The translations under genes and the position numbers were made by a program. The notes beneath the pieces were generated by a model. It had not been told where the DNA came from, made no database searches, and was given only the letters and a program-made list of their open reading frames with translations. This document shows, in pieces, positions 4,712 to 20,799 of a DNA stretch of 64,000 bases (positions are counted from its first letter, which is position 1; every line of letters starts with the position of its first letter). Origin of the DNA: Bacteriovoracaceae bacterium (GTDB taxonomy: Bacteria; Bdellovibrionota; Bacteriovoracia; Bacteriovoracales; Bacteriovoracaceae); contig JBLWTJ010000002.1 of NCBI GenBank assembly GCA_048270185.1, forward strand, positions 224,001 through 288,000, in the 5' to 3' direction.

Positions 4712-4876
4712 CTAAAGACTCTGCCAAAGCTCTTTTAGCCTATCAATACTGGCTTCTCCATCTTCTAAGAGCTCTTCTTTGGAAAAAGGAAGCTCGTCAT
4801 CACTAGAGAGAAAAACGATGATTTGTTTCAAACGCTCTGCTTCATTTATGAGGTCATGTCTTAATTTACTATCCAT
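4712..4876 (-). CDS. Small (54 aa) HisKA/DHp-like helical protein
   Basis: ATG at 4876, just after the bEBP stop at 4884; MDSKLRHDLINEAERLKQII resembles an H-box helix. The track's upstream extension overlaps the bEBP gene. Confidence 0.55.
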   Translation of the reverse strand: MDSKLRHDLINEAERLKQIIVFLSSDDELPFSKEELLEDGEASIDRLKELWQSL

Positions 4877-4883
4877 TTTTGAC

Positions 4884-6245
4884 TCACTGTAAGAAACTTG
4901 AGCTTTTTGCATCAGATTGAATTCGATAAAGTAGTGACTTTGATAATTGTAGCTCACGGGCCACTTTATTTATCTTGCCATCACATTCATTAAGAGTTGA
5001 TTCATAGACTTTTGTTTCGATTAATTTGATCAGACTTTGCAGGCCATTATTTCGCGCAAACTCAATCATCTCTTCAGTAACAAAGTTTAAATTATTATCA
5101 ATTTTCGACTCATTATTCTCATTGTTTAAGATATAACGAGGTAAATCAGATAGAGTAATTAAACCTTTCTTTCCAGCACTAATAGTTAGGACAAGATTCT
5201 CTAGCTCACGAATATTTCCTGGCCAGTCGTATTTATTTAAAATCTCTTCGACTTCATCATCAAGAATAATTTTCTTTGATGAGTTCGATAGGAAGTGATC
5301 AAACAATAAAGTTATATCTTCTCTTCTCTCTTTTAGGGATTTAATCTTTAATTCAAAACCATTTATTCTAAAGAAAAAGTCTAAGCGAAATTTTTCTTCT
5401 TTAATAAGTTTTTGAAGATCATCACATGTAGCTGTGATTAAACGAAAGTCACTTGTTTCAACTTCAGTTGAACCAACTTTACTGAATGACTTCTCTTCAA
5501 TGGCCTTAAGAAGCTTCTTTTGGATATGGACAGGTATCGTTCCAATTTCATCTAAGAATAAAGTTCCACCATTAGCACGAGAGAGAAGTCCCTCTTTATC
5601 ACTTGAGGCTCCTGTAAAGGCACCTTTGACGTGACCGAATAATTCACTTTCAATTAGGTTCTCTGATAGTTCAGATAAATTAACGTGGACAAAATTTCCA
5701 GCGTCACTCGATAACTCATGTAATGCTTTAGCGATTTTTGTCTTACCAACACCAGTTGGCCCAGTAATTAAAATTTTATGCTCGCGAGGTCTTGGAAGAT
5801 CTCGAAGGTAAGAGATTTTAGAAATAAGCTCTTCATCGTTAGTAATATACTTAGTTGCAAAGAATGAGCGAAACTCATCTTCATCCATCGAGTTAAGAAT
5901 ACCACCAACGTGCTCTTTTAAGTTCTCTAAGAAGTCCTGCTTTACAAAATAATGATCACATCCTGCTTTATAAGCAGCTTTGATAATATCTTTAGAATCA
6001 TTACCTGAGAGTGCGATAGATGTAATATTCTTTTCATTGGCCTTTTTGATAACTTCAATCCCTTCAAGCCTTTCATTTTCAGATAAATCAAGATCAGAAA
6101 ATACGAAGGAAATATTTTGAGTCTTCAACATATGTAAGGCCACTTGAAGGTTTTGGGCCTCAACAATTTGCCCATATTCTTGTAATTGGCTTACAAGATT
6201 AAATCTAAAATACTTATCATCTTCGACTACTAATATCTTCTTCAT
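4884..6245 (-). CDS. NtrC-family sigma54-dependent response regulator (REC-AAA+-HTH)
   Basis: REC ILVVEDD...FSDLDL; Walker A GPTGVGKT; ESELFGHVKGAFTGA; LFLDEIG; WPGNIRELEN; C-terminal HTH (INKVARELQLSKSLLYR). Confidence 0.96.
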   Translation of the reverse strand: MKKILVVEDDKYFRFNLVSQLQEYGQIVEAQNLQVALHMLKTQNISFVFSDLDLSENERLEGIEVIKKANEKNITSIALSGNDSKDIIKAAYKAGCDHYFVKQDFLENLKEHVGGILNSMDEDEFRSFFATKYITNDEELISKISYLRDLPRPREHKILITGPTGVGKTKIAKALHELSSDAGNFVHVNLSELSENLIESELFGHVKGAFTGASSDKEGLLSRANGGTLFLDEIGTIPVHIQKKLLKAIEEKSFSKVGSTEVETSDFRLITATCDDLQKLIKEEKFRLDFFFRINGFELKIKSLKERREDITLLFDHFLSNSSKKIILDDEVEEILNKYDWPGNIRELENLVLTISAGKKGLITLSDLPRYILNNENNESKIDNNLNFVTEEMIEFARNNGLQSLIKLIETKVYESTLNECDGKINKVARELQLSKSLLYRIQSDAKSSSFLQ

Positions 6246-6268
6246 AATGGTCCTCTTTAGACCATTAT
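6244..6268. promoter_or_regulatory. Perfect inverted repeat (GTC-N7-GAC core) over the RBS and start codon of the sigma54 regulator
   Basis: ATAATGGTC-CTCTTTA-GACCATTAT, 9-bp arms. Confidence 0.55.
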
Positions 6269-6330
6269 TATCTAATTAATACATAAAATTAAAGGCTTAT
6301 GTAAAAAGTATCGGTATTTTATTTAATAGA

Positions 6331-6347
6331 CAGTCGAAAAAAGACTG
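6331..6347. promoter_or_regulatory. Inverted repeat CAGTC-N7-GACTG (candidate operator or weak terminator)
   Basis: CAGTCGAAAAAAGACTG in the intergenic region upstream of the bEBP gene. Confidence 0.4.
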
Positions 6348-6367
6348 CTTAAATACCCTAAATTACA

Positions 6368-6742
6368 CTAAATACTGAGTTTTCTACACTTAAGCTTTAA
6401 GAGGGCCTTTTCAAATTCAATCTGAGTCGCAAAAATTTTAAAGTAGTCATGGCCAAAGGTATTGTGAAGGGCCTCTCTTATCGACTCATCTGAATTCGTT
6501 AATACTTTTTGAGTAATCATACCCTTTTTGAAGTCATCAAAGGTTGCATCCTGATTCTCAACTTCTTTTTGAATCTCTTCAAATAACTCTTGTACGCCTT
6601 TAGTATATTTTTTAGTTTTACAAGTATTTGTCTGTGTATCATTTCCTGTCGCGATGGTATCCGATGAGCCACTTGTGCTTGTTCCACCACCACATGATAT
6701 AAGAGTAGAAAATAAAATTATTATTGCTAAAATATTCCTCAT
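6368..6742 (-). CDS. Hypothetical lipoprotein
   Basis: Lipobox LISC, Gly/Ser/Thr linker, helical domain with two further Cys. Confidence 0.8.
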   Translation of the reverse strand: MRNILAIIILFSTLISCGGGTSTSGSSDTIATGNDTQTNTCKTKKYTKGVQELFEEIQKEVENQDATFDDFKKGMITQKVLTNSDESIREALHNTFGHDYFKIFATQIEFEKALLKLKCRKLSI

Positions 6743-6753
6743 AATTCCCTCAA

Positions 6754-7515
6754 TTATTCGAATTTAAAATTCTTTGTTATATTTCTATTCTCTTCCATTA
6801 TATATGTTTGAAACTCATCAAATCCAATATAGTCCATAAGAGTTGGTCGTGTTTCATCACCTATAATTTTAATCTCTTTATTGATATTAAGATATAGAGA
6901 TCGATCTTGATATGTATTTGTTAGATTGACTTCTTTTACTTTTGGAAAGAATTGTAAAAATCTAAAATCGGCAATATCAGTGTCAGAGAGGTCAAGGCTT
7001 CTCTTTCTTTTTATCTTTCGATAAACAGAGTAACATGAAGAGCGATCATAGCTTTTCCCTAGAGCAGCAAGAGCATGCTTTTCAAATTCATTGAGATTAG
7101 ACATTCTACAATAATCAAGAAAATTTGCTTCACGACATTTTAAGTTGGTTGTATCAACAGCTAGATTTTTAACAATAATAACTTGTCCTCGGCGTGTATA
7201 ATTTGCAGTCGATTCTTCAAAGAATGATTTTTCAAAATCTCTCTTTTCCCACTCCCCTGCAATATATGTATCATTGATGACAGTATTAACACTTCCGATA
7301 TCTGTATAAGTTTCGTAATCCTCAAGTTCAGCACTAATCTTGACTCCAGAGCAAACAAGCGCCTTAGCTGTTTTATTTTCTATTGTAAGAATGACCTTAT
7401 TATTTTCTTCTCCTGTTTTCAGGTTGAAGTTCACCCCATCCAAATCAGAAGCATTTGTATTTACGAATAAAATAAATAAAAGAATTGTTACTAAGTTTTT
7501 CATATTATCTCTCAC
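6754..7515 (-). CDS. Secreted hypothetical protein with a short LRR-like C-terminal region (likely start 7503)
   Basis: Signal MKNLVTILLFILFVNTNA; Cys cap followed by SLDLSDTDIADFRFLQFFPKVKEVNLTN (LRR-like). Confidence 0.7.
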   Translation of the reverse strand: MRDNMKNLVTILLFILFVNTNASDLDGVNFNLKTGEENNKVILTIENKTAKALVCSGVKISAELEDYETYTDIGSVNTVINDTYIAGEWEKRDFEKSFFEESTANYTRRGQVIIVKNLAVDTTNLKCREANFLDYCRMSNLNEFEKHALAALGKSYDRSSCYSVYRKIKRKRSLDLSDTDIADFRFLQFFPKVKEVNLTNTYQDRSLYLNINKEIKIIGDETRPTLMDYIGFDEFQTYIMEENRNITKNFKFE

Positions 7516-7924
7516 ACTTAATTGAATTTAACACCTTAAAAGGTTTGCTCATTATTGAGCGATACTCGATTTTTTCAAGAAGGTTATTTGAATCAAAGTT
7601 AATTACCAAACTATCAGTTTTCCTTAAACTCTGTTTTCCAGAAGTCTTCTTGAGAAGTAAATTTGTTACAACTTCATGATCAGCTTGACCAAGAGTCATA
7701 CTTAATCCAGCACTATTTCCTCTAATACGATCAACAATTGTCAACCATACACTATTATTAATATCACCAATATGATCAATATAAATGTCACAATTATAAA
7801 GTTTTATTCTTCCTCTATATTCTGACAAGAAGTGATCAAGGACCTGTTTGTTACCTGAAGAAAAGCTCCATTCACTAGCGTTAGTATTCATCATAACAAA
7901 CAGTAACAACAAAAAAGTTTTCAT
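7505..7924 (-). CDS. Secreted hypothetical protein
   Basis: Signal MKTFLLLLFVMMNTNA; start overlaps the upstream gene's stop (ATGA). Confidence 0.8.
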   Translation of the reverse strand: MKTFLLLLFVMMNTNASEWSFSSGNKQVLDHFLSEYRGRIKLYNCDIYIDHIGDINNSVWLTIVDRIRGNSAGLSMTLGQADHEVVTNLLLKKTSGKQSLRKTDSLVINFDSNNLLEKIEYRSIMSKPFKVLNSIKCER

Positions 7925-8565
7925 CGATCATCCCTTTCAAAAATTAATTCCAATTCTGGACGATAAACTTCAATCCCTAAATTAATCATCGAATTCCCAT
8001 GGCATAGGTCTAGGTCTTTTAAGTTCTTAATAGGACAGTTTGAAACAATTAATAATTCAAGTCTATCCTGCATACATAGTTGCCAGTTTGAAATCAGACT
8101 TAGAACTCTTCCTTCTTCAACAATTAGCGGTCTAACATTTTCTAGTGCAAGATTAATTTCATCACCAATTTTAAGGGCATAAAAGCTATTCTTATCAATT
8201 GATTCAACCGGAAGCTCAATCAGAATATTTTTTTCTAATACACCACGATATGAAAGTTCCACTTGCTCTTTCAAATAAAGACTCAAGTACTGGTCATAAG
8301 CGATTGAAAAATCATCTATCCCACCTAGATTATTTGCATATGTAAACTCTTTAACTTGTGAAACAATTCTCTTAGCTTGTTTTTGTCTATGAGATATTGC
8401 TTCGCAAGAAATAAACTTATCAGCAGATATAACATGACCAACATTATTGCTAATACTTCTTCTTGCATGCTTTAAGACATAGAGAAGGTTTTCATCAACA
8501 ATATTGGCCATACCAGATGTCATGCTAAATATAGTAAATAAAGAAATTACAATCGCTTTCAACAT
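7921..8565 (-). CDS. Secreted hypothetical protein
   Basis: Signal MLKAIVISLFTIFSMTSGMA; GAGG RBS; four Cys. Confidence 0.8.
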   Translation of the reverse strand: MLKAIVISLFTIFSMTSGMANIVDENLLYVLKHARRSISNNVGHVISADKFISCEAISHRQKQAKRIVSQVKEFTYANNLGGIDDFSIAYDQYLSLYLKEQVELSYRGVLEKNILIELPVESIDKNSFYALKIGDEINLALENVRPLIVEEGRVLSLISNWQLCMQDRLELLIVSNCPIKNLKDLDLCHGNSMINLGIEVYRPELELIFERDDR

Positions 8566-8570
8566 GACCT

Positions 8571-10151
8571 CTATTCTTCAATAACAAAAGTTGCAGTACC
8601 GTAATGAGAGTATGCTCTCGTCTCTTTTACTTCTTCAGTACTTTTATAATTAAACTTTCTTAGAAACTCACTTGTTTGTGTTGCACTTCCAAATAATGAA
8701 TTCGAAAGATCAAGCGCCATTGCAGCATACTTACAGTAAACAGATGGACAGTCTTTACTCTTAAGCATATCTGAGCCTACAGACGCCCCGTTTCTTCTTG
8801 CTTCAGGAAGAGTGATTGCAGGGTTAGAACGAACATATCCTGTAGAGATTTCTTCAATAGTCTTAGCAACAAAGTCATTCATTATTTTACTCTTTTCTTC
8901 TTTCGAAAAATTATCTCTTGGGTCTTCTGAGTAGAAATGTACTTCTAAATTACCAGCAATATTTGTCGTCTCTGATATTGAGTTAATTGACTTTGTCTTA
9001 AATAAGCCACCTTTTGTCGTATGCTTCTTTACTTTCTTATAAATCTCACTCTTGTTATAAATAAGTCTGTAGTTATTATTAACAGCAAGGTTATACTTAT
9101 ACATTGAGTTAACATTGAAAACAGCAGTTAAATCTTTGTTAGCTTTTTCACCTTTTAGTAGCATGCAAGATGATAGTGCTGAAATATTAACACTACCACT
9201 TAAAGACTCACCGAAAACAATACTTCTAAATCCTGGCGTAACCTCATTGTCTTGATCCATAATTCCTGGAATACTAATATCTTTTTCAATTTCAGAAACT
9301 AGACCACCGATATCGTTAACAGCAAACTGAATCGAGTTATCAACAGGCATTCTCTGAAGATTAATTCCTCTATTATAACGCTTGAATTCATTAAGAAGTT
9401 CATAATGTTTATTTTCAAGTATAACTTTTACTGTCCCACCATTACGTGATCTCATATCAGCGAGGTCAGCATTCATTTTTTTAAGTAATACTGAAATTAC
9501 ATCAAGAGTATTTGATTCACGTGTCGTTAGTTCTTCAACTTGCATTTTAGTTGCGACTAATTGCTCATTTAAGCTTGTTTCCGCTTCAAAGAGACCTTCA
9601 AGTTTTGCATTAACCTGTGCCATCGAACTTTCAATTTTCACAAGTGTATTTTCTAATTGCATTATATTGTAACGATTTAGATCCTCATTCTTTTTCAAAG
9701 CTACAATTTGAGTTTCAACTAGAACTTTCTTACCCTGAAGATCTATTTTCTTCTCTAGCAACTTAATACGAGACACAGTGTATTTCTGTAGACTTGTATT
9801 CGTACGAACAAGAGTTTGCATTAAAAGCTTTAATTGTCTTTTCTCATAAACAGAAAGCTCTGCACTATCTTGAATTTGATCAATCTCTTTACTGTATTGA
9901 TCTAACAATAAGTAAACACCTTCACACTCTGCTTCCGTTACGAGAGAATTGAATGCATCCACTCTCACAGTATTTGTTTTTGGGGGAAGAACATAGGCAG
10001 TCTTACAAGACTGATCCCAAAAATACCCCGTCGATCCTTTTGGTTCACGTATCTTTTGTGAATCACACTTCGTATACTTATTTGGAATATTGGCCAATAC
10101 TGGAGCAGATATTAAAAATGCTGCCACTGCCATCTTTTTACTAAAATTCAT
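8571..10151 (-). CDS. Secreted coiled-coil protein, paralog of 11187-12617
   Basis: Signal peptide; CKTAYVLPP motif; long heptad region; FGESLSGSVNISALSSC; GAGGTG RBS. Confidence 0.85.
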   Translation of the reverse strand: MNFSKKMAVAAFLISAPVLANIPNKYTKCDSQKIREPKGSTGYFWDQSCKTAYVLPPKTNTVRVDAFNSLVTEAECEGVYLLLDQYSKEIDQIQDSAELSVYEKRQLKLLMQTLVRTNTSLQKYTVSRIKLLEKKIDLQGKKVLVETQIVALKKNEDLNRYNIMQLENTLVKIESSMAQVNAKLEGLFEAETSLNEQLVATKMQVEELTTRESNTLDVISVLLKKMNADLADMRSRNGGTVKVILENKHYELLNEFKRYNRGINLQRMPVDNSIQFAVNDIGGLVSEIEKDISIPGIMDQDNEVTPGFRSIVFGESLSGSVNISALSSCMLLKGEKANKDLTAVFNVNSMYKYNLAVNNNYRLIYNKSEIYKKVKKHTTKGGLFKTKSINSISETTNIAGNLEVHFYSEDPRDNFSKEEKSKIMNDFVAKTIEEISTGYVRSNPAITLPEARRNGASVGSDMLKSKDCPSVYCKYAAMALDLSNSLFGSATQTSEFLRKFNYKSTEEVKETRAYSHYGTATFVIEE

Positions 10152-11187
10152 AACTCACCTCTCCTATTTCAACTTTATTTATAATTGTTTTAAATTTGAT
10201 TCCCATTCCAGGAGTAACTTTTTTATCTGAGTACTTTCTAACTACTGATTCGATAAAACTTGGAGTTAAATCATTGAATCCAAATTTTCCATTCTGCTCA
10301 AAAAAGCTCCTATAGAAATCGAGTCTTCCTTTCTCTCCAAAACGATTAAGTATATCTCCTTTGAATAGAGCTCTTTCGCCTTTCATCATTTCAGCAGTTT
10401 TAAAGCCTGCCTCAAACATATTTTTTGGAGATGTTAGTTCATTTAGTTTCTTAAGTTTATTTCCATAAGACTCAACATCTTCAGACTTAATCCAATCTGT
10501 AACAACTGTTTGACTAAAGTGCTTCCCGCTAACATTGAATGCTAACTCAACATCTTTTTCAGCAATGTCACAGGCTAATTCAAAAAGAGAAGTATCAAAT
10601 TGAACTTTTCCTATTTTTAAATCATCAGCAGTTCTTGCATAAAAGTAATCTTCATCAAATCTCTTAAGATATACATTTAAGTAACTCTCAGGAAATAATT
10701 TCAGAATCGCACTATTCTTCACTTCAACATCAAAGAAAGATTCATTAAAACTAACCTGATTATTAATCCTCGAAAGAACAGATTCCGGATTAACGTTTAC
10801 ACTTAAAGCAAGTCTCTTCAAGAACCCGACAGAAGCGAAGCGTTCTCCATATGGATAAATAACCACTTTATTCTTTCCTAGTTCATAAGAGTTTGTTTCT
10901 CCAGAAAGAGTAAAAGGTTCTAAAATCTCACGACGAATTTGTGCAAATTCTTTCGCATCCATTTTAGATACATCTCTAAATCTTAGCTCCTTCTTATAAA
11001 GACCTTTAATTTTTCGACATAACTTCTTTTCTAGTGTAATGCTATCAACTACAATTTTCGATTCATACTCATTAGCAAACTCTAGATTTAAATTATTATT
11101 ATGATCTTTTTTAAATTCATAACCATCGACACTGATCACATTGGCAATTGCCGCTAGGTTCAGAAGAGTTAATAAAAGTGCTCTCAT
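10141..11187 (-). CDS. Secreted hypothetical protein
   Basis: Short signal MRALLLTLLNLAAIA; overlaps both neighbouring genes. Confidence 0.82.
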   Translation of the reverse strand: MRALLLTLLNLAAIANVISVDGYEFKKDHNNNLNLEFANEYESKIVVDSITLEKKLCRKIKGLYKKELRFRDVSKMDAKEFAQIRREILEPFTLSGETNSYELGKNKVVIYPYGERFASVGFLKRLALSVNVNPESVLSRINNQVSFNESFFDVEVKNSAILKLFPESYLNVYLKRFDEDYFYARTADDLKIGKVQFDTSLFELACDIAEKDVELAFNVSGKHFSQTVVTDWIKSEDVESYGNKLKKLNELTSPKNMFEAGFKTAEMMKGERALFKGDILNRFGEKGRLDFYRSFFEQNGKFGFNDLTPSFIESVVRKYSDKKVTPGMGIKFKTIINKVEIGEVSYEF

Positions 11188-12617
11188 TATTTACTCTCCT
11201 TTACAAATCCCATCGTTGTAATTCTAAGAACAGTTTTAATAAGCTCTGATTTCTCATTATATGAGTAAGCAAAATTCTTCGCACTTGTTTGAATTAACTC
11301 CCCTCTACCTTCGACTGCAACTTTCACAGTATAGCTTTGGTCCCAACACTTACGACTTTTTCTAAAAAAACTTCTCTTTGTACGACAAATTCTCTGAGTT
11401 CTCGTTTGCTTAATATGTGGATCATTTGGAATATCAAGATCTTTAATAATAAGCTTACTATCTGTTGGTGTGGCAATTGTTGAGATTAGCTTTAAAACGA
11501 TATCATCTAGAATTAAGCCTTTTAAATCTTGAATCTCTTCGTATAGTTCACCCGACGTTCCTGCTGAATCTTCATCCTGGATCGTAATATCAATTGACTG
11601 ATCTAAATTTGAACTTTCAAAAAGATCAACAACTTCTGAAACCTTAAATGTATTCTTTGTTTTAGTTAGTTTATTTAATTCATTTATTACTTTATCGACT
11701 TTTACTTTTACCGAGTACTTCTTACTCAACTCTACTGGATACCATATTGTTGAGTTAGCAACCAAGTAAGTTGATAAATTTGAATTAAGCGCCTCTCTCT
11801 TAGCGCTATCTAATGTAAACGCTTCACCATTTTTCTTCTTTAGAATATTTACGATAGGACACACACCAGACATATTAAGTTGAATAAATCCTGTTAAACT
11901 CTCTCCCATTGCAAAAGTGTTCTCACTTTCAGCTGCAGCATAACCAATTCTTTCAGAAATATTTTCAAGACTTGAAAGCTTTACTCCTGGTACATTAAAA
12001 GAATGAAGAGCACCTGTACTACTAAGTCCAATTAAGTCATCTTCTGACTTTAGTCTCACACTTAGAGCATTTGCAACAAGAGGCATCTTCTTAATTGTAA
12101 GCCCTCGGCCAGTGTTTGCTTCACGGTATGCATTTACTAGTTCAGTCCACTCGTGTTCAAAGTGTGCCTTACCTTCAAAGATAACCATCTTAGAAAATTG
12201 ATCCTTCTCCATCTTTGCTTGAGGCAAGGCCTTATTTATATAAGTAAGAATATTCATTTCAGAATCAGTTAGAGTTGCAATACGAGATTCTAAATCACGT
12301 TGTGTTTCAACAAGATTCTTCACGCGATTAAGTGATGTCGTATAAGAAGAACATAAGTTACTTTCTGCAAGAATATTATATGAGTCAAAACGAGCAATCC
12401 CATTTCTTGGAGGTAAGACAAATACTGTCTTACATGACTTATCTGTTAAGTAATCAGAAGAGTGAGATGCCACTGCTCCACCTGCACCAGGTTTTACAAT
12501 TGCCAGATTACATTCTTCAGTATTTCCCTCATAAGGAAAGTTTGCAAAACCAAATTGCCCAATAACTAAAGAACTTAGAAGCAGGCCTTTCTTTAAAAAT
12601 TCATAATAAGTATTCAT
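11187..12617 (-). CDS. Secreted coiled-coil protein, paralog of 8571-10151
   Basis: Signal peptide; CKTVFVLPP; MGESLTGFIQLNMSGVCP; GGGAGA RBS. Confidence 0.85.
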   Translation of the reverse strand: MNTYYEFLKKGLLLSSLVIGQFGFANFPYEGNTEECNLAIVKPGAGGAVASHSSDYLTDKSCKTVFVLPPRNGIARFDSYNILAESNLCSSYTTSLNRVKNLVETQRDLESRIATLTDSEMNILTYINKALPQAKMEKDQFSKMVIFEGKAHFEHEWTELVNAYREANTGRGLTIKKMPLVANALSVRLKSEDDLIGLSSTGALHSFNVPGVKLSSLENISERIGYAAAESENTFAMGESLTGFIQLNMSGVCPIVNILKKKNGEAFTLDSAKREALNSNLSTYLVANSTIWYPVELSKKYSVKVKVDKVINELNKLTKTKNTFKVSEVVDLFESSNLDQSIDITIQDEDSAGTSGELYEEIQDLKGLILDDIVLKLISTIATPTDSKLIIKDLDIPNDPHIKQTRTQRICRTKRSFFRKSRKCWDQSYTVKVAVEGRGELIQTSAKNFAYSYNEKSELIKTVLRITTMGFVKESK

Positions 12618-12669
12618 ATTTATCTCCCTAGCAATTATTTGCTCTCATTTATTTAGTGACTTGTTAAAA

Positions 12670-12836: not shown

Positions 12837-12878
12837 ATAGATAAGCTTACTAATTATGATTAATTCGAGGAGAAAGAT

Positions 12879-13757
12879 ATGAAGACTAAATTTATGAGTA
12901 TATTATTGGCCACAAGTTGCCTCTTAGTACTAGGCCAAGTTCATGCTATAACTTTCACAAAAACTGAGGCTAGAAAAGTTTGTAAAGAGATAAGAGATAG
13001 CCAGATCAGTCAGACATCACAGTGTAATTCTGATGTAAATACTAACTACAATATCATTGAAGAACTTACTAAAAGCTACCTTCATGGCCTTGACCTTTTA
13101 GATGAACGACAAAAAGAGGCCCTCCAATACCTAGAGTATAACTCACAGGCCCAAGGTGAATATCTTGAATTATCAAAGTCGAAAATTGAACTAACGGATC
13201 AGTTAAAAGGCCTTGAGGAAAATATTCAATCAACTTTTGAGTACTATAACAAGTTGATTGAAGGTATTTCACCAAACTTCTCTAATCGCTATGCCACAGA
13301 ACTTCTACAACAATATTCAAAAGAGAAGAAAACAAGAGTAAGCCGCCTAGAGAGCGAAAGAGAATCTCTAAGTTCTCGCCTTACTTCAATTAGAGAAAGG
13401 CTTGCACAACTTAATATTGAACTTGCTCCATATCGTGAAATTATCAATCAATACAACTTACAGATAAGTGAAATAAAGTCACAAACTCAGCAAATTCTAA
13501 AAAGACTTGAAGAAAATAAACAAACAAATAGGAGTCATGATACGACAGGATTCATTGGAAGATCCCTATTTGACTTTGGCCATGGAGATGACTTTGATAT
13601 GCAAGCATGTATAAGTTTGCATATGTCTCTTAACAAGTTACCTGAGTTTGATTTACCACGTCTGCCTAATATACCAAGAGGCCCTTGGGGAACAGATGGA
13701 CCTGGCATCAATAACCCTTATGTGAAATCTTTACAAAAAGAATCATATTCTAGGTAG
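12879..13757 (+). CDS. Secreted long coiled-coil protein with Pro/Gly-rich tail
   Basis: Signal ending QVHA; heptad-rich core; tail LPRLPNIPRGPWGTDGPG; GAGGAG RBS. Confidence 0.85.
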   Translation: MKTKFMSILLATSCLLVLGQVHAITFTKTEARKVCKEIRDSQISQTSQCNSDVNTNYNIIEELTKSYLHGLDLLDERQKEALQYLEYNSQAQGEYLELSKSKIELTDQLKGLEENIQSTFEYYNKLIEGISPNFSNRYATELLQQYSKEKKTRVSRLESERESLSSRLTSIRERLAQLNIELAPYREIINQYNLQISEIKSQTQQILKRLEENKQTNRSHDTTGFIGRSLFDFGHGDDFDMQACISLHMSLNKLPEFDLPRLPNIPRGPWGTDGPGINNPYVKSLQKESYSR

Positions 13758-13836
13758 TTAGAGATGACGTGAGAAAAAAGAAATTCAAACGATTATTAAT
13801 TTATGATAACAATAATTAAAATTTAATGAGGGATAT

Positions 13837-14247
13837 ATGAAAGATAAAACAATTATCGGACTAGCAATTCTAACAGCAACTTTTGGAGCTCATGCGCAAG
13901 ATGCTGATACACAGAATAAAGATGATAAGTCTAAAGACTTAAAACAAATCTATACCCAACAAGAAGACTTAACAGTTGATGAAGAAGTCGAAATTAAAAT
14001 TCTCGAGCACCTTGAAGAGCAAGGTATCTTAATTGAAGACCTTACAATCCAAGAGATTGAAGAACTTCAGATCCTAATGAAGAAAATTGTACTTAGAGAT
14101 CGCTTGCTAATAAATTCAAGTATTCGTTGTATGATAAGCCCAGATGCTGCAAGCACTAATATTAGATGTCTTAGTGCAGAAAGAAAACTCGAAGAGAAAT
14201 TAAAAGAGCAGCTAAATCAAATCAATCAAAGCTTTAACCGCCGCTAA
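13837..14247 (+). CDS. Secreted small protein, candidate YcaO substrate/precursor
   Basis: Signal ending GAHA, acidic helical region, then NSSIRCMISPDAASTNIRCLSA; lies 9 nt upstream of the YcaO gene. Confidence 0.6.
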   Translation: MKDKTIIGLAILTATFGAHAQDADTQNKDDKSKDLKQIYTQQEDLTVDEEVEIKILEHLEEQGILIEDLTIQEIEELQILMKKIVLRDRLLINSSIRCMISPDAASTNIRCLSAERKLEEKLKEQLNQINQSFNRR

Positions 14248-14256
14248 TTAGTATTA

Positions 14257-15426
14257 ATGAAAATATTAAATCAAAGAGAGTCTCTTGATGGCCTTGTCGA
14301 CAGATTTGCAATCCAAGGCCAGGCTCTTTCTGATGATACAATTCTCAATATAAAAGAATTCCTAAATAACAATACCGATAGACTTACAATTGAAAGAGTT
14401 ATTTCGGATTTAATACCTCACGACTACTATCTGACACGAACATCATGTTACTATCATGGTACACAAATAAATGGTTTTTCACTCTCACATAAAGAAGAGC
14501 CTCACAAATCACTGCTTGAAGCCTATGAGAGGTACTTATTTTTAAACTTAGCTCTACTTGCAGATATTAATAATGAATCAAACAATGCATCTTCATACCT
14601 AAAATTGCTTAATGTTGAATCGATGGATCTCTCAAAGACGAATGTCATCAATTTAAACTCGCTAGAGGAAGTTAGTCTTGAACGCTATTTACTTGGTCTT
14701 CAATCAAATTTCTCATCCTTTACTTCAAATGGATGTGCAGTACATACATCAGTACTAAACTCAACCAAGGCATCGATCTTCGAATTATTAGAAAACCATA
14801 TCATTCAAGAGCATATCATGCTTGATATAGCACCAGTTGAAGTCCATGTAGACGAGCTTATCCCCACTTCAATTTCAGCGAAACTTAATGAGCATGGATT
14901 TGAGATAAAGACCCTTTGCTTTACAAATGGCCAATGGCCTACTTTTTTAACGTTCATTCTTAATAAAGACTTAACAGGTCCCTATCTATTCTACGGCATT
15001 GGCTGCCATGAAGATTTAGATCAAGGTTTACAAAAATCAATTAGAGAAGCTTTCATGTGTTGGTGTATCGAGCTTCCTCAGATTAGCGCATTAGATGAAG
15101 TCGACTTAGGACACGATATCTCTAAGTCATCAAAATTCTATCATTATCAAAATAGTGAAGTCATGCAAAAGGCATGGTTTGGTATGCCTATTAAAAGTAT
15201 TGAAGAGATTAAACTTCAATACCCAACCCAAAAGTTAGCGGCCGTTATTAAAGAAATGGACTTTTTAATTCTGCCAATTCTGGCCCAAGGAGAAAAAGGA
15301 CAAACCATTGTTTTTACAAAGGTTTTTTCTTGTAAAAATCACCCAAAATCCTACTCAACTCCCCCCTATCTACGAATTCATGATACATTAAATAATATTG
15401 ATAAATTAAAAAATTACCCTTTCTAA
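14257..15426 (+). CDS. YcaO-family protein (divergent)
   Basis: KSLLEAYERY; TSNGCAVH...SIFELLENH; YGIGCHEDLDQGLQKSIREA; C-terminus ...YPF. Confidence 0.8.
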   Translation: MKILNQRESLDGLVDRFAIQGQALSDDTILNIKEFLNNNTDRLTIERVISDLIPHDYYLTRTSCYYHGTQINGFSLSHKEEPHKSLLEAYERYLFLNLALLADINNESNNASSYLKLLNVESMDLSKTNVINLNSLEEVSLERYLLGLQSNFSSFTSNGCAVHTSVLNSTKASIFELLENHIIQEHIMLDIAPVEVHVDELIPTSISAKLNEHGFEIKTLCFTNGQWPTFLTFILNKDLTGPYLFYGIGCHEDLDQGLQKSIREAFMCWCIELPQISALDEVDLGHDISKSSKFYHYQNSEVMQKAWFGMPIKSIEEIKLQYPTQKLAAVIKEMDFLILPILAQGEKGQTIVFTKVFSCKNHPKSYSTPPYLRIHDTLNNIDKLKNYPF

Positions 15427-16272
15427 GTGAGAGATATGAAAGTTGGAAGTATATTAAAGTATAGCAACACAGAGCTATCCTTAGTTGAAAAATTACCTTC
15501 TGGTTTAAATAAGCTAGTATGGTCTAAGGACACTCAGCTACTGATCTTTGACCAAGAAGACAATTATCTTCTACTGAATCCAAGAGAAGTTTCTGGTATG
15601 AGACTTTTTATTGAAGGTCAAAAAACGACACTAATTAAACTATTAAAAGACCAAACTCTTTGCTATCTCATTCAAGGTATTGCTAAAAGCTTCCAATGTC
15701 GATTTATACAAATCCAATCAGAGCAGCTTGATTTAAAAGATCACCTTGATAATGGCTTCTACTTTTCAAATATTATATTAAAAAAAGATTTATCTAAACC
15801 AATCGAAGAAATCAGTTCATCACTAATTGAGAGAAAACTCGATAAAAAATATCAAAATGAGTATGCTTTAAATGAATTTATGACGAGAGTGTCAATTCCA
15901 GGTGGAACACATTACAAGGATGATTTCTACACACTGATTAAGGCAGAGTATAAGGAACTAATCGAACTCGATATCGATGGACTAGACTTTATTGAGTATT
16001 CTTTAAAGGAATATGGCCATGATACATATTATATATGGATGATTAACCACCATACCAAAACTGCTCTACGATGTTTTTCATGGGTGGCACCAAAACTTAG
16101 AGGACAAAGTATATCGAGTCGTGCAAATGAAGAAATCAATAAGAGCTTATATGCTAAAGGCGTTAAGCAATGTCTATCATTTACATCTTTCACAAATATA
16201 GCACAGGTAAGAAGTAGTTTAAAAGCTGGCTACAAGTTAGACCGAATTGTTATTTTAAAAGAGGTTAACTAA
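15427..16272 (+). CDS. Protein with C-terminal GNAT acetyltransferase-like domain
   Basis: Motif A WVAPKLRGQSIS and motif B NIAQVRSSLKAGY. Confidence 0.65.
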   Translation: MRDMKVGSILKYSNTELSLVEKLPSGLNKLVWSKDTQLLIFDQEDNYLLLNPREVSGMRLFIEGQKTTLIKLLKDQTLCYLIQGIAKSFQCRFIQIQSEQLDLKDHLDNGFYFSNIILKKDLSKPIEEISSSLIERKLDKKYQNEYALNEFMTRVSIPGGTHYKDDFYTLIKAEYKELIELDIDGLDFIEYSLKEYGHDTYYIWMINHHTKTALRCFSWVAPKLRGQSISSRANEEINKSLYAKGVKQCLSFTSFTNIAQVRSSLKAGYKLDRIVILKEVN

Positions 16273-17660
16273 TGAGTCGTTTAATTCTATCAACTTTACT
16301 CATTCTTATTTCAATTAATACTCTTTCTAAAGATATCTACTTAAAAAGTGATATTAAAATTACCGGATTTGACCCAGCAACCCTAAAGTATGCAGAGGAA
16401 TGGGAGTTATCCCCAACTGTATATGAGACACTAATTAAACCAATTGCCTCAGAAGGTTTCCTTAGGCCTTCTCTTGCTGAAAGTTGGAAATACAAGAGCG
16501 GAACACTAAAGTTCAACCTTAGAAAAGAAACAAGATTTTCTAACGGTGACCCAATCAATGCCAAGGCAGTTAAAGAGTCATTCCTACGTTACTTACTACT
16601 TGATAAGAACAAGGAATCTATTCTTTACAATTGTTTAAAAGAGGCAAAGAATATTAAATCAATCACTGAATCTCATCCTTCTATTACGATTCAATCGGAA
16701 TATAATATTTCTTTTAAAATTAAAGAAGACTGTAAGGATACTTTTCTAAAAGAGATCGCTCAACCGATATACGGTATTGTCTACACAAAGAACTTAAAAA
16801 AGGACCTTTCATTAACTACTCCTTCGATTGTATCAGGAGCTTTTAACTATAAATTAAATAACGATGATCTTATCCTGTATCGTAACAGCAATAACTGGGC
16901 ATGGTTTGAGAATAAATCCAAATTACAAAAGATTATTGTCTCAAAGAATAGAAGTAAGAATACGAATGTTTTAAGAACAGGCTCTATTGAAGTATTCAAT
17001 GAACTGCAAGAGTCAAATCAAGATTTCATTCTTAGTCTTCCAAATATCACTTGGTATCTAACATACGAATGTAAGAACGATTGTGACCTAAAGAAATCAA
17101 TAATAGATGAACTAAAATATAATCTACCAAAAATCATTAAAGAAAAGAGCTATTCAAATGTTTTCAATACACCAGCAGATTCTTTCTTTCCAGCAAGTTT
17201 TAACTGCCCATCAAAAGAGGTTAAAAAGGTTGCTATAAAGAAAAAGGGAATATGTCTTAAACTTGACTACGGATCGAGAAGAACAAATGAAGCTGTCATG
17301 GGATTCACTGATAAAGCATTAAATGATCTCGGTTATAAAACTAATAACTGTGAGAATCCAAAGGTTTTCAAAATATACCCACAATTTCTCCATGATGAGA
17401 TTATACCAACATTAGATTTCTTGGCCAATACAGTCATGTCAATCAACAATATTGTAGAGATCAACAAGTATCTTCCAAATCAAAACAATAAAGTTACCTA
17501 CAATCGAGGAAGGCTATGCACAGAGTTCAGTAAGTTAAACTTTACTCCACTCTATCACTCACGCATTGCTTTTTTCTATTCAGATAAACCACTAAAGAAA
17601 ATATTCTTTAAAAGCGGTGGATATATTAGTTTAATTGATCTGCCATTTGTTGAGTTTTAA
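16272..17660 (+). CDS. Family-5 (oligopeptide/nickel type) ABC substrate-binding protein, no adjacent permease
   Basis: Signal peptide; FDPA...VYETL...PSLAESW...FNLRKETRFSNGDPINAKAVKES. Confidence 0.82.
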   Translation: MSRLILSTLLILISINTLSKDIYLKSDIKITGFDPATLKYAEEWELSPTVYETLIKPIASEGFLRPSLAESWKYKSGTLKFNLRKETRFSNGDPINAKAVKESFLRYLLLDKNKESILYNCLKEAKNIKSITESHPSITIQSEYNISFKIKEDCKDTFLKEIAQPIYGIVYTKNLKKDLSLTTPSIVSGAFNYKLNNDDLILYRNSNNWAWFENKSKLQKIIVSKNRSKNTNVLRTGSIEVFNELQESNQDFILSLPNITWYLTYECKNDCDLKKSIIDELKYNLPKIIKEKSYSNVFNTPADSFFPASFNCPSKEVKKVAIKKKGICLKLDYGSRRTNEAVMGFTDKALNDLGYKTNNCENPKVFKIYPQFLHDEIIPTLDFLANTVMSINNIVEINKYLPNQNNKVTYNRGRLCTEFSKLNFTPLYHSRIAFFYSDKPLKKIFFKSGGYISLIDLPFVEF

Positions 17661-17661
17661 T

Positions 17662-18684
17662 ATGAAGATTACCGAGAATGATTATTTTTTAGCAAAGAAG
17701 TATAAGAAGCAAGATAGCTTCTATATAAGCCTATCTCGTAAACGCCCTACTTTAGCTGGTGCATTTATTGAAATGCTAGAAGTTCTTTCACAGAACTTAA
17801 TTAATAAAGAGTGTGATTTTCTACTAATCGACAACGACGATCAGATTCTTTTAAAGGATTTACAAAATATTGGATTCAACACTTATGGTTACTTAGCAGA
17901 TGATAAATTAATCTCACTAAGTGACATTAACCTTATTGCACATACAAAAAAGATACAGAATATTGTTCTAGTTGTCGGAAGTAAGATTAAGCATCCTTCA
18001 ATTGAGAACTCAAAAGAGTTTATTTCATTTATTAGAAACAGAGAGCGTTATTTAACAAATCTTACAGAATTAAATCCAAATATTTATAAGGATACAGAGA
18101 ATTTAAAATCTTTTAACCTACAAGATAATGATAAATTAAGAGTTGATAATAGCTTCTCATCTCTATCAATGAAAAGAACCTCGGCAAATGGATTTAACTC
18201 GCCACTAGAAAGTAGTGAAATCATCCAGCTTCTTAACGACAGTCTTTCATATACTCAAAGTAATTCCATAAAAAGACCAATTGCTTGTGCAGGAGGACTT
18301 GGAAATTTCAAGGCCTATATAACAAATGGTGATAATAATGTCGAAATCTACACTCCAGAAGACTTAAACATCAAGCAAACGAATATCGAATGGAATAATC
18401 TTTTAATGGACCAGATAGCAAGTAATCTTGAGACCTTTAATGGATGTAAAACTTGGCTAATTCTAAGTGTGGACCTAGTTCAATTAAGGAGTAAATATGG
18501 AGCAAGAGCTTATCGATTTGCTCTAATGGAAACAGGCGGACTTCTCCATCAACTACATCTATCGGCTACTTCATATGGATTTGACTTTCGTATTCTAGGC
18601 GGTTTTGACGACAAGGTAGTAGAAACTTTACTACACATAGGTAATGAAGAAGTTGTCACAGCAATATGTGGACTAGGAAAGTAA
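17662..18684 (+). CDS. SagB/McbC-type FMN-dependent dehydrogenase (nitroreductase fold)
   Basis: KRTS...KRPIACAGGL...KYGARAYRFALMETGGLLHQLHLSA...LGGFDD; ATG 17662 directly after the SBP stop. Confidence 0.82.
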   Translation: MKITENDYFLAKKYKKQDSFYISLSRKRPTLAGAFIEMLEVLSQNLINKECDFLLIDNDDQILLKDLQNIGFNTYGYLADDKLISLSDINLIAHTKKIQNIVLVVGSKIKHPSIENSKEFISFIRNRERYLTNLTELNPNIYKDTENLKSFNLQDNDKLRVDNSFSSLSMKRTSANGFNSPLESSEIIQLLNDSLSYTQSNSIKRPIACAGGLGNFKAYITNGDNNVEIYTPEDLNIKQTNIEWNNLLMDQIASNLETFNGCKTWLILSVDLVQLRSKYGARAYRFALMETGGLLHQLHLSATSYGFDFRILGGFDDKVVETLLHIGNEEVVTAICGLGK

Positions 18685-18690
18685 CAACTA

Positions 18691-20799
18691 ATGAAAAGAA
18701 TTGATAAGATCTTCATCATTCTCTTTTGCTTTATTATCGTAGTGTTAGGATTCTACTCAAATTATGCCTATAGCTTAATTCAAGAAGAAGCAAAGCAAGT
18801 TGCCATCAAACAAATGATTGCTAATTCTAATGTTATAACTTCATCTATCCAAAATGATGTATTTTCAAGTAACTATATTAACGCCTGGTACTCAGCATCA
18901 CGTTCAATCAAAAACATAGATGGTGCTTACTTCATTCTAGCGGATATCGACGGTAACGACCTAGTCGATGATTTAGGCTCTCAACTCAAGTATAAGAAGC
19001 TTACAGAAAATAATAAATTTAAAAAAAAGGAAATTAACAAGTCTTCTTATTATTTAGTTTCAAATGACTTTAAAAACCTCATTGTAAAAGATCACTTTAT
19101 TAGTAACCTCGACGGGAAAAGTAATTATTCTATTTCATATGTCTATCCGCTCTCTTTCTTAGAAGCGAGTATATCAAAAATCTCATATATAAATTTAGCT
19201 TTAGCTGCAATATTAATTGGAATCATTGCTCTGTATTTTATAATTATTCGTAAGCTCTTTAATAATAGCTTCACTGCTCTTGGTAATGGAGTTGACCATA
19301 TTATTAAGGGGGAAGAAATCACTAATGCTGAAATCAACGAAGTACTTGAAGATCATTTCGAGGCGCGCACACTCCTTGATAATTTCAAGAAAGATTATGA
19401 TTTAACTAAGAGGAAGTTACAGGAAGAAGCAAAACTATCGGCCCTTTCTAAAATTGCAACACAAGTTGCCCATGATATTCGTTCCCCTCTATCTGTATTA
19501 GAAATGTCTATTTTTGAAGAGGAACAAGTTAGTAATAAGAATATAATCCAAAGTGCGATTCAAAGAATTAATGATATTGCCAATAATTTATTAAGTGAGA
19601 ACAGGACTAATACTAAAGGTCAGGAAGAGATCTATCTTCCATATGTTATTGATTCGATTATTACCGAAAAACGCTACCAATATTCAAAATATCATCAACT
19701 AGAAATTAGATTTGTTAACAATTGTGACAATCTTAACCTGTTTACAAGGTTTAACGATATCGAGCTAAAGCGAATTCTTTCAAACCTTATTAATAACTCG
19801 GTCGAGAGCTTCGCAAACAGACAAGGTATTATTGAAATTATCCTCACTGACTCTCAGAATGATATCTTCTTAGAGATTAAGGACAATGGTCACGGTATTG
19901 AAGAAGACATCCTAGATCAACTACGCAAGAATCCATTTAGTCACAAGAAAGAAGGTGGAAATGGAATAGGCCTTTCTCATGCGATGCAAACAGCTCAGAA
20001 GTATCAAGCCAGTTTAGCACTAGACTCGCAAGTAGGACATGGAACAACAATTCGCCTAACACTTAAGAGAACTTCAGCACCAAGGTGGTTTAGCTCTTCA
20101 ATTAACCTTTCCAAATTTGATAATATAATTGTCTTAGATGACGACTACTCGATTCATGAGCTTTGGAATAAACGTTTATCAGGCCTTAAGAGAGATTATC
20201 ATATTATCAATTTAAATGACCCATTAGAGCTATCAGCAACTCTTTCTAAACTTGATATTAGTAAGACTTTCATTATATGTGATTACGAATTTGTACATGA
20301 GTCGCTAGACGGTATTGATACCATTATTGAAAATGATATCTCTAAGAACTCTATTCTTATTACAAGTCACTTCAATGAAGACGACCTTCAAGAAAGATGT
20401 CTTAAGAACTCAATAAAGATGGCACCTAAAAATTTAGCGAGATTAATTGAGCTACATGAATTTGGTAATATGAGTAAGGGAAAACAGGTCGTCTATCTTG
20501 ATGATGATCGCCTTTTAACTCATGCCTGGAAAACGAAAGCAACTAAGAATGGTGTGGATTTACTCACTTTCAATAATGTGAATGACCTACTTCAATCAGC
20601 AAGTGAGATCGATCAACAGGCGACCTTCTATATTGACTATAGTCTAGGTGAGAATGAATTAAGTGGAGATAAAGTAATTGAGAAGTTACAATCTCTAGGC
20701 TTTACTAAATTTTATTTGGCATCTGGTTACACTAGGGACTACTTTGACGAACTTGGAATTAATATCGAAGTCGTAGGTAAAGAAGCCCCTTGGGTATAA
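18691..20799 (+). CDS. Membrane hybrid sensor histidine kinase with two C-terminal receiver-like domains
   Basis: Two TM segments; QVAHDIRSPL; NLINNS, DNGHG, GNGIGL boxes; IIVLDDD and VVYLDDD receiver starts. Confidence 0.92.
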   Translation: MKRIDKIFIILFCFIIVVLGFYSNYAYSLIQEEAKQVAIKQMIANSNVITSSIQNDVFSSNYINAWYSASRSIKNIDGAYFILADIDGNDLVDDLGSQLKYKKLTENNKFKKKEINKSSYYLVSNDFKNLIVKDHFISNLDGKSNYSISYVYPLSFLEASISKISYINLALAAILIGIIALYFIIIRKLFNNSFTALGNGVDHIIKGEEITNAEINEVLEDHFEARTLLDNFKKDYDLTKRKLQEEAKLSALSKIATQVAHDIRSPLSVLEMSIFEEEQVSNKNIIQSAIQRINDIANNLLSENRTNTKGQEEIYLPYVIDSIITEKRYQYSKYHQLEIRFVNNCDNLNLFTRFNDIELKRILSNLINNSVESFANRQGIIEIILTDSQNDIFLEIKDNGHGIEEDILDQLRKNPFSHKKEGGNGIGLSHAMQTAQKYQASLALDSQVGHGTTIRLTLKRTSAPRWFSSSINLSKFDNIIVLDDDYSIHELWNKRLSGLKRDYHIINLNDPLELSATLSKLDISKTFIICDYEFVHESLDGIDTIIENDISKNSILITSHFNEDDLQERCLKNSIKMAPKNLARLIELHEFGNMSKGKQVVYLDDDRLLTHAWKTKATKNGVDLLTFNNVNDLLQSASEIDQQATFYIDYSLGENELSGDKVIEKLQSLGFTKFYLASGYTRDYFDELGINIEVVGKEAPWV

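Follow-up and report, generated by a model that had tools for sequence, protein, structure and literature searches.

An inserted island of a Bacteriovoracaceae bacterium with a recurrent, putative YcaO-containing sensing module and a cassette of predicted exported proteins

Introduction

Autoinduction cassettes built on a modified peptide are known from Bacillus (ComQXPA) and Staphylococcus (agr), and the ShkA-ShpA-TacA system of Caulobacter is a phosphorelay made up of a hybrid kinase, a histidine phosphotransfer (HPt) protein and a sigma-54-dependent bacterial enhancer-binding protein (bEBP). LuxP-LuxQ and TorT-TorS are sensor kinases that depend on a solute-binding protein (SBP). The combination of a YcaO enzyme with a SagB-type dehydrogenase is the hallmark of azole-containing ribosomally synthesised and post-translationally modified peptides (RiPPs), and YcaO enzymes are familiar from the synthesis of antibiotics and toxins and from the modification of proteins; we know of none built as a regular element into a two-component sensor. 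SBP-dependent sensor kinases have been reviewed (PMC8050422), and passages of PMC12452194 call Sec signals on RiPP precursors 'highly unusual' and give bufferins as the only case shown by experiment. The subject here is a locus at positions 4712-20799 of a 64,000-nt stretch of DNA, hereafter the window, from a Bacteriovoracaceae bacterium (assembly GCA_048270185.1, contig JBLWTJ010000002.1, 224,001-288,000 of the forward strand), in which genes for a YcaO-like enzyme, an SBP and a histidine kinase lie divergent from those for seven predicted exported proteins and a bEBP.

An earlier note on the same DNA had proposed that a peptide is modified, exported, bound by the SBP and sensed by the kinase, which activates the bEBP and through it both arms of the locus, and on its gene content this circuit is plausible. 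It is quite possible, in our estimate, that the locus is an accessory regulatory unit in which a modified exported protein of the cell's own making would be read by the SBP and the kinase, driving sigma-54 promoters.

A recurrent, putative sensing module in the Bdellovibrionota

Evidence for a dedicated sensing module comes from the relatives of the window YcaO. A profile of this protein and its 6 nearest relatives matched 65 of the 400 other genomes searched in the phylum, mostly with open frames of 310-350 amino acids (aa), and 7 of 8 short members tested scored over the Pfam YcaO cut-off; a 24-row alignment of the short proteins keeps SExxER, SNGxAxH, ELxERD and a C-terminal PHPxG. Neighbourhoods of 16-20 kb were drawn independently around 68 YcaO-like loci and the neighbours classed by profiles grown from the window proteins. 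A family-5 SBP gene (SBP5) within 400 nt together with a kinase gene within 2 kb, on the same strand, was found at 36 of the 68 loci, with a bEBP of at least 400 aa within 7 kb at 13 of these 36. A SagB-like gene lies nearby at 7 of the 68. These counts are lower bounds, as the distance rules were strict and some contigs end early. The usual orders are bEBP, small open reading frame (ORF), SBP, YcaO, kinase, or YcaO, small ORF, SBP, kinase, and one relative (G286:C233) has the order of the window, namely small exported protein, YcaO, GNAT-like protein, SBP, SagB-like protein and kinase. With SBP5 and kinase at 36 loci and a bEBP at 13, the linkage of YcaO, SBP5, kinase and bEBP is, judged from gene order, no chance neighbourhood, and this survey of synteny across the phylum bears out an association that had first been drawn from one locus. 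The earlier note recognised no described system with this layout, and full-text literature searches naming YcaO gave no published account of a YcaO, SBP and kinase module. The sensing core is apparently an undescribed signalling module, and its layout is, on the same comparison, a recurrent family and not a one-off.

A small ORF with a signal-like N-terminus stands directly upstream of the SBP or YcaO gene at 24 of the 36 SBP-kinase loci, and in 17 of these 24 a Cys is among the last 16 residues, mostly behind Gly or a small residue (tails such as ...GGSICW, ...GGTICF, ...KGTICF, ...GSRCY, ...STFCY, ...GGRCIR, ...GIRCGGVPKPN and ...QPTCL). The 136-aa protein of the window, which had been put forward as candidate precursor, holds the same position; it has only two Cys, a signal-like N-terminus in place of a leader, and the motifs SSIRC and TNIRC followed by ~25 residues, as in the variant at locus L067. 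A LExxGIL motif, recognised by eye, is common to it and several small members. These comparisons support its membership of a class of small exported proteins that recurs at such loci and has tails rich in Gly and bearing Cys. Similar Cys motifs were seen as ACIS in the 292-aa protein of the window and as RCMIS and RCLS in the 136-aa protein. The 292-aa coiled coil might be a second substrate.

A second subtype of YcaO-like locus was recognised at L039, L041, L042, L044, L048, L061, L068, L069, L072, L074, L083 and L088, where a short YcaO-like gene adjoins a divergent response regulator of ~230-250 aa and a kinase of ~560 aa.

The YcaO could instead modify the SBP ahead of its export, or the kinase, or act as an ATP-dependent partner of the kinase, with the small exported protein an unrelated accessory. 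SBP and YcaO genes overlap and always adjoin the kinase, the second subtype couples the YcaO to kinases in the absence of an SBP or an obvious small ORF, and YcaOs that modify whole proteins exist, as in the thioamidation of methyl-coenzyme M reductase; such a role is nevertheless improbable, given the Cys-tailed small ORF at 17 of the 36 SBP-kinase loci and the absence of the small ORF where other enzymes replace the YcaO. At L134 (G498:C1, 657-9610) the genes run bEBP, His-Asp mini-ORF, MFS, TPR, SBP5, O-methyltransferase (Methyltransf_2, 1.4e-19) and kinase, with neither a YcaO nor a small exported ORF beside the SBP and kinase, and a relative of the 526-aa exported protein of the window, preceded by a sigma-54 site, is divergent from the sensor arm. 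This single case of an enzyme swap in which the small ORF is absent fits a part for the enzymes as makers of the ligand.

Enzymes and binding protein of the right arm

The YcaO and peptide-binding protein of the earlier description were both upheld by Pfam. The window YcaO scored 39.0 bits against a cut-off of 25.7 and carries EAYER, SNGCAVH, ELLEN and a C-terminal YPF, which we take to be the ATP/Mg sites and the Pro-rich C-terminus of active YcaOs. As far as sequence searches reach it is nearly an orphan: a word search matched only the protein itself, 13 proteins including it were found at E <=1e-3 among 1.84 billion representatives (4 of them reaching 1e-30), and a scan of genome and metagenome contig collections with a 4-row alignment confirmed no relative. 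Its relatives are publicly named only 'YcaO-like family protein' and come from Bdellovibrionota, Bdellovibrionales and Pseudobdellovibrionaceae assemblies. The genome also has a second, canonical YcaO (G000:C1:1004841-1005836, Pfam 228.7 bits) in a 731-aa open frame.

For the 281-aa protein, called a GNAT in the earlier note, Pfam gave no match. Three weak leads agree, namely Atlas features (0.96), Acetyltransf_1 in its homolog from G286 (E=0.0096, below cut-off) and a two-row profile search of the PDB (4 chains at E 0.03-0.28, 3 of them named acetyltransferase), and it is accordingly labelled a probable GNAT acetyltransferase. The SagB-like protein is above the cut-off for Pfam Nitroreductase (1.1e-10, 42.4 bits) and under that of the family model TIGR03605 (scores below). 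The SBP matches SBP_bac_5 (8.3e-19) and has a signal-like N-terminus; its best NCBIfam matches are NikA, Opp5A and CntA, all under cut-off, and Pfam found no ABC permease, ATPase or other transporter domain in the island. A complex predicted for SBP residues 20-462 (from a 37-row alignment) and the 136-aa protein in its mature form scored 0.00 against a mark of 0.32, a result that decides neither way.

A YcaO with a SagB-type dehydrogenase would also suit a conventional azole toxin of the thiazole/oxazole-modified microcin (TOMM) type, directed against prey or competitors, with kinase, SBP and bEBP regulating it in response to an unrelated ligand. Classical-looking YcaO-SagB pairs do occur in the phylum, at L033, L052, L058, L060, L093 and L095, and the pair of the island itself gives weak matches to the TOMM models TIGR03604 and TIGR03605. 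The candidate substrate of the island, however, has two Cys only and a signal peptide for a leader, and Pfam found neither an exporter nor an immunity gene or protease. SagB is missing from most relatives of the module, which yet keep SBP and kinase, and on balance we regard the toxin as quite unlikely. At L060, L093 and L095 (~7100-8600 in each) a ~330-aa YcaO and a divergent SagB-like gene of 410-420 aa come after an ORF of ~135 aa that has no signal peptide and closes with ...TLTATN(C/S)SSY(S/C)DS(S/T). By its sequence it looks like a classical azole precursor of leader plus core.

The island and its insertion site

The locus comprises 17 ORFs in two divergent arms with a 261-nt spacer between them (Table 1). 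All the ORFs of the two arms that the earlier note had listed were found in place, and its inventory fell short only in passing over the conserved 54-aa ORF after the bEBP. The mostly tight packing it described holds, the genes of the right arm abutting or overlapping by a few bases; in the left arm 122 nt separate the last exported ORF from the bEBP, which may have a promoter of its own.

Table 1. Features of the two arms, with positions and strands in the window
Feature	Position	Strand	Basis
54-aa ORF (MDSKLRHD...), candidate HPt/DHp-like mini-protein	4712..4876	-	translation; starts 8 nt after bEBP stop
bEBP, REC + AAA+ (GAFTGA) + C-terminal helix-turn-helix (HTH)	4884..6245	-	Pfam, motifs
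124-aa putative lipoprotein, LISC lipobox, last cassette gene	6368..6742	-	ORF, hydropathy
253-aa predicted exported protein	6754..7515	-	homolog at same position in G442:C273
139-aa predicted exported protein	7505..7924	-	homolog in G442:C273
214-aa predicted exported protein	7921..8565	-	homolog in G442:C273
526-aa predicted exported protein, CKTxxVLPP motif, long helical hairpin	8571..10151	-	founding family member
348-aa predicted exported protein	10141..11187	-	homolog in G442:C273
476-aa predicted exported paralog of the 526-aa protein, first left-arm gene	11187..12617	-	sequence comparison
sigma-54 -24/-12 site TGGCACactccCTGC, faces left arm	12684-12670	-	pattern match
sigma-54-like site TGGCACtcagaTTGA, GA for -12 GC, faces right arm	12822-12836	+	partial match
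292-aa predicted exported coiled-coil protein, C-terminal ACIS motif	12879..13757	+	ORF, hydropathy
136-aa predicted exported protein, two IRC motifs (Cys98, Cys111), candidate YcaO substrate	13837..14247	+	
divergent YcaO, 389 aa, ExxER, SNGxAxH, ExxEN, C-terminal YPF	14257..15426	+	Pfam, motifs
281-aa probable GNAT acetyltransferase	15427..16272	+	weak leads
orphan predicted periplasmic SBP_bac_5 protein	16272..17660	+	Pfam
SagB-like nitroreductase-fold dehydrogenase	17635..18684	+	Pfam
702-aa hybrid histidine kinase, HisKA, HATPase_c, two C-terminal receiver domains	18691..20799	+	Pfam, fold

The flanks are unrelated to the locus, as had been said, being by Pfam katG (peroxidase) on one side and bcp (AhpC-TSA) on the other. 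Queries with the YcaO and the 526-aa protein gave no match in any of 12 other genomes of the same genus. Orthologous bcp, at 72-81% identity, was found in 5 of the 12, and in all 5 katG is at most a few hundred bases from bcp, ogt and metG being found on the opposite side; bcp matches in the remaining 7 are at paralog level only and uninformative on insertion. As katG and bcp are adjacent in 5/5 relatives, the locus is a ~16.1-kb insertion of exactly the listed genes, and by this comparison it is a self-contained unit between katG and bcp, in keeping with what the earlier note had supposed. The sequence upstream of katG that is conserved in the genus resumes directly past the stop of the 54-aa ORF (the conservation, seen over window 4590-4700, extends to the very edge of the island), so that the katG control region was spared by the insertion, and at the other end 2 nt separate the stop codon of the kinase gene (20799) from that of bcp.

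The G+C content of the island is 0.333 vs 0.366 for the 3.35-Mb genome. Pfam found no integrase in the island, and the boundaries have no direct or inverted repeats of at least 12 nt, a single 10-nt inverted word being common to both. Both junctions and the divergent spacer are bridged by contigs from public runs of two studies (X3 at 4239-7682, 11739-19330 and 19384-21105; X1 at 11404-14286), and one of these runs may itself be the source of the assembly; since contigs from two studies bridge the junctions, the arrangement is no assembly artefact. Over 4239-7682 the X3 contig has 139 differences from the window, with two paired 1-nt insertions/deletions near 4710-4714 and 4753-4756; a diverged strain variant of the island exists.

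Sigma-54 sites

Back-to-back sigma-54 promoters had been proposed in the spacer, and of these the left stands in full and the right in part. The left-arm site reads TGGCAC-N5-CTGC and is canonical, whereas the right-arm site reads TGGCAC-N5-TTGA, with GA where the GC at -12 of sigma-54 promoters is nearly invariant. Each is oriented to its own arm with the start codon 31-42 nt downstream. On both strands of the genome the pattern of the left site occurs 24 times and that of the right 4 times, TGGCAC alone occurring 895 times in 6.7 Mb of strand, and two correctly oriented copies of TGGCAC in one 261-nt spacer are unlikely by chance. The genome has rpoN, at G000:C1, and gives 11 matches to the Sigma54_activat model, 8 of them at E <=1e-20, with the island bEBP included. 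A weak sigma-70-like pair overlaps the right-arm site; the scan for sigma-70 promoters and terminators as a whole was uninformative (50 promoter-like sites vs 66 in shuffles).

In the relatives, sigma-54-like sites were required to have GG and GC unchanged and to agree with the consensus at 9 or more of its 11 positions. They were found at 10 of 57 naive operon starts vs ~1.4 expected (~0.025 per 310-nt window), and several further sites lie directly upstream of the bEBP, where the naive operon walk had overshot, so that many related modules appear to be autoregulated. Genes of the 526-aa family are preceded by such sites in 5 of 21 related loci (L013, L133, L134, L136 and L141), a count that leaves out the window's own left-arm site, and the site at L136, TGGCACACTCCTTGCA, is nearly identical to that of the window. 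This comparison gives good support to control of the secreted cassette by sigma-54. Two related modules, at L036 (1935-1950) and L031 (17358-18733), adjoin the same four small genes of ~85, 119, 122 and 110 aa. At L036 a perfect sigma-54 site, TGGCACGATCATTGCA, divergent from the bEBP, faces these four genes.

The predicted secreted cassette of the left arm

From the spacer outwards the left arm encodes proteins of 476, 348, 526, 214, 139, 253 and 124 aa, then the bEBP and the 54-aa ORF. The seven had been described as exported unknowns, and the description holds: all 7 have a hydrophobic N-terminal segment and none has a Pfam or NCBIfam match at cut-off. Their maximum 10-residue hydropathy is at least 2.15, as it is in the 292-aa protein, the 136-aa protein and the SBP, and 0.55-1.56 in the bEBP, YcaO, 281-aa and SagB-like proteins; the export calls are those of this hydropathy heuristic and not of a trained signal-peptide predictor. 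CKTAYVLPP and CKTVFVLPP are found in the 526-aa and 476-aa proteins. The 526-aa family has members in 27 of the 236 other genomes searched within the taxonomic family. The protein itself has no Pfam, NCBIfam or Atlas match and its AF2 model is poor (pLDDT 59.8). A role as periplasmic adaptor was considered and rejected, the Foldseek matches to EmrA/HlyD being weak (E 8e-4, 1e-2; TM 0.2-0.4) and driven by the helical hairpin.

Twenty stretches around 526-family genes were fetched. One of them (G442:C273; L131, 4335-10706) has all seven cassette genes in the order of the window, the last encoding a 126-aa lipoprotein, and a lipoprotein of 124-126 aa closes the cassette in both L013 and L131. Upstream in L131 is a 413-aa ORF that by eye is DEAD-box helicase-like. 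In G158:C1 one strand carries a 476-like gene, a 526-like gene, bEBP, His-Asp mini-ORF, small exported ORF, SBP, YcaO and kinase, and the start of the same arrangement is seen in G372:C116. In G017:C19 SBP, YcaO and a divergent kinase lie a few kb from a five-gene 526-type cassette that is divergent from a bEBP, and in G498:C1 a 526-like gene is divergent from a bEBP that is followed by the YcaO-less SBP and kinase variant. Judged from these neighbourhoods the output cassette is exchangeable, the sensor family being found with other cargo elsewhere and this cargo also without the sensor.

The cassette standing alone in G442:C273, the non-canonical right-arm site and the 122-nt gap before the bEBP would all be expected if the two arms were mere neighbours joined by insertion and the bEBP controlled one of them only. 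This is very improbable: the 16.1 kb form a single insertion that encodes no further regulator, 526-family genes have preceding sigma-54 sites and flanking bEBPs in several genomes, and the co-occurrence of the arms on which the earlier note had staked its circuit is found in two other genomes (G158:C1 and G017:C19), where a 526-family cassette lies beside sensor genes.

The regulator, the kinase and a possible phosphorelay

The activator agrees with its earlier description as a REC-AAA+ protein with intact GAFTGA. Pfam gave Response_reg (3.5e-13), Sigma54_activat (7.3e-54) and AAA_lid_14; GAFTGA is at residue 208 and the Walker A motif GPTGVGKT at 162, and a Fis-like HTH stretch was recognised by eye at the C-terminus. 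The NCBIfam NtrC-like match of 255 bits is under the equivalog cut-off, so that the bEBP has no named orthologue. In the kinase, transmembrane segments near residues 5-28 and 163-190 enclose a predicted periplasmic loop of ~135 aa. Its receiver was found by Pfam only at E=0.031, and a profile search of the PDB yielded no convincing match. For a model of residues 470-702 (pLDDT 81.5) the top Foldseek matches were the tandem-receiver proteins PleD (2.7e-6), 3luf and 3mf4, and the hybrid kinase ShkA (6qrj, 1.9e-4), and both receiver halves keep the acidic pocket and the Asp, Ser/Thr and Lys positions in 3/3 aligned homologs. At the level of the predicted fold two C-terminal receiver domains are confirmed and make the kinase a hybrid, as it had been called.

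Counterparts of the 54-aa ORF directly follow the bEBP at L030, L082, L145 and L134, with His7-Asp8 in 5/5 loci, and one member reads HDFKG; a HxxKG motif belongs to HPt domains. Pfam gave no match for the 54-aa ORF, and its part as a phosphotransfer mini-protein is speculative. Because the kinase has two receivers and a His-Asp mini-protein follows the bEBP, a phosphotransfer step is probably needed between kinase and bEBP, and with two receiver domains in the kinase a His-Asp-His-Asp relay is plausible.

Proposed mechanism and its difficulties

The 136-aa protein is, we infer, the substrate of the YcaO, and its modified form is what the SBP and kinase would read. Before export the YcaO, with ATP, would cyclise Cys of the 136-aa protein to thiazoline, which the SagB-like flavoprotein would oxidise to thiazole, and the GNAT-like enzyme would add an acyl group. 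The hydrophobic segment at the N-terminus suggests that the protein would then pass by Sec export to the periplasm, where the SBP would bind the modified tail or a released fragment and dock on the ~135-aa periplasmic loop of the kinase. Phosphate would move from the kinase His to the kinase's own receiver, which is known from the predicted fold, and on to the receiver of the bEBP, perhaps, more speculatively, by way of the 54-aa His-Asp protein. The bEBP and sigma-54 would open the canonical cassette promoter and, probably, also the weaker one ahead of the sensor arm, which would close a positive feedback loop. For this last step the sites, rpoN and their recurrence in relatives are observed.

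Several observations weigh against this mechanism. The window YcaO scored 43.7 against TIGR03604, far below the cut-off of 219, and the SagB-like protein 52.8 bits against TIGR03605, where the TOMM-specific cut-off is 78.4. Pfam and NCBIfam found no E1-like (SagC/McbB) or Ocin-ThiF partner, leader protease or exporter among the island ORFs, and azoline-forming YcaOs usually need an E1-like or Ocin-ThiF partner. The 136-aa protein is atypical in that its Cys are residues 26 and 39 from the C-terminus, and in 7 of the 24 small ORFs the tail is rich in Gly/Ser/Thr but contains no Cys. The second subtype, ~12 of the 68 loci by eye, has no SBP, its YcaO being paired with a kinase and a short, divergent response regulator, so that the link of YcaO to kinase is not always by way of an SBP. 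On the output side the right-arm site is only a partial match, no public RNA runs were listed with window 11800-15400, a bEBP of at least 424 aa is present in only 8 of the 20 fetched 526-family stretches, and no bEBP, YcaO or SBP adjoins the seven-gene cassette of G442:C273. A Sec signal, moreover, would deliver the protein only to the periplasm, and signalling between cells is the weakest link of the proposal and unsupported.

Delivery to the periplasm would equally serve a co-sensor. A heterocycle could make the small protein a metal- or redox-reactive cofactor protein, bufferin-like, that stays in the periplasm and whose loaded or unloaded state is read by the SBP and kinase. The protein has a Sec-type signal only and the island no outer-membrane exporter, the best NCBIfam matches of the SBP, although below cut-off, are the nickel and metallophore binders NikA, Opp5A and CntA, and the island lies between katG and bcp, a placement that may be chance. 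According to passages of PMC12452194, RiPP precursors with a Sec signal have so far come from copper-binding bufferins; these have several modified Cys, whereas a single heterocycle would be a poor chelator. The tails are also highly diverse, some of them without Cys, and Pfam found no metal-handling genes in the island. On this evidence we think the co-sensor unlikely, and likewise unlikely its corollary that the system reports an outside cue (metal, oxidant) and not cell density.

Significance and comparison with known systems

Returning to the reading in which the modified exported protein is the signal, a wider proposal is conceivable, though doubtful: that the Bdellovibrionota possess a hitherto undescribed signalling class in which a miniature YcaO would write a heterocycle into the tail of a Sec-exported mini-protein, to be read by a dedicated family-5 SBP and a (hybrid) kinase that would drive sigma-54 promoters. 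With the same reserve, the island would be an extended version of that class that forms a thiazole, acylates it and signals by phosphorelay to seven secreted proteins. A regular place for a YcaO in a two-component sensor would be a new role for these enzymes. Should the small exported protein be both YcaO substrate and SBP ligand, this would be RiPP-based signalling in Gram-negative bacteria and a second class of Sec-exported RiPP besides the bufferins. For a predator growing inside the closed periplasm of its prey, such a self-signal could serve as a measure of confinement or density and set the moment at which effectors are released. The island offers a genetic handle on how predatory bacteria turn on sets of secreted proteins, and the family many natural variants of tail and receptor, in a modular design of sensor and exchangeable cargo.

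Like ComQXPA and agr, the island brings together in one locus a candidate precursor, an enzyme for its modification, a membrane-bound histidine kinase and a response regulator, and positive feedback is probable. Its enzyme is a YcaO (with SagB-like and GNAT-like proteins) and not an isoprenyl transferase or AgrB, and its precursor has a Sec-type signal, with putative periplasmic reception by an SBP, output through a sigma-54 bEBP and a Gram-negative host; the likeness is one of gene content, release from the cell and autoinduction being putative here. With TOMM clusters (SagBCD, McbBCD) it has in common a YcaO whose ATP/Mg motifs are intact and whose C-terminus contains Pro, together with a SagB-like partner of nitroreductase fold. 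It differs from them in showing no E1-like/Ocin-ThiF partner, exporter or protease by Pfam and NCBIfam, in family-model scores far below cut-off, in the absence of SagB from most relatives of the module, and in a candidate precursor with a signal peptide and two Cys where TOMM precursors have a leader and a Cys/Ser/Thr-rich core. The bufferins, as described in passages of PMC12452194, resemble it in a precursor with a Sec signal for a leader and Cys as presumed target; unlike theirs, the island enzyme is a YcaO, with no MNIO (DUF692) or DUF2063 found by Pfam, and the genes are embedded in a two-component system.

The ShkA-ShpA-TacA relay is matched in a hybrid kinase with two C-terminal receiver-fold domains, a REC-AAA+ activator and a small His-bearing protein, the relationship shown being one of shared domains. 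The 54-aa protein of the island is, however, half the size of an HPt and has no family match, and the input would be an SBP and peptide, not c-di-GMP. Like LuxP-LuxQ and TorT-TorS, finally, the island sets the gene for an orphan periplasmic SBP beside that for a kinase with a periplasmic loop and has no transporter genes; unlike them, its SBP belongs to family 5, the peptide, nickel and opine type, and the presumed ligand would be made by enzymes of the same operon.

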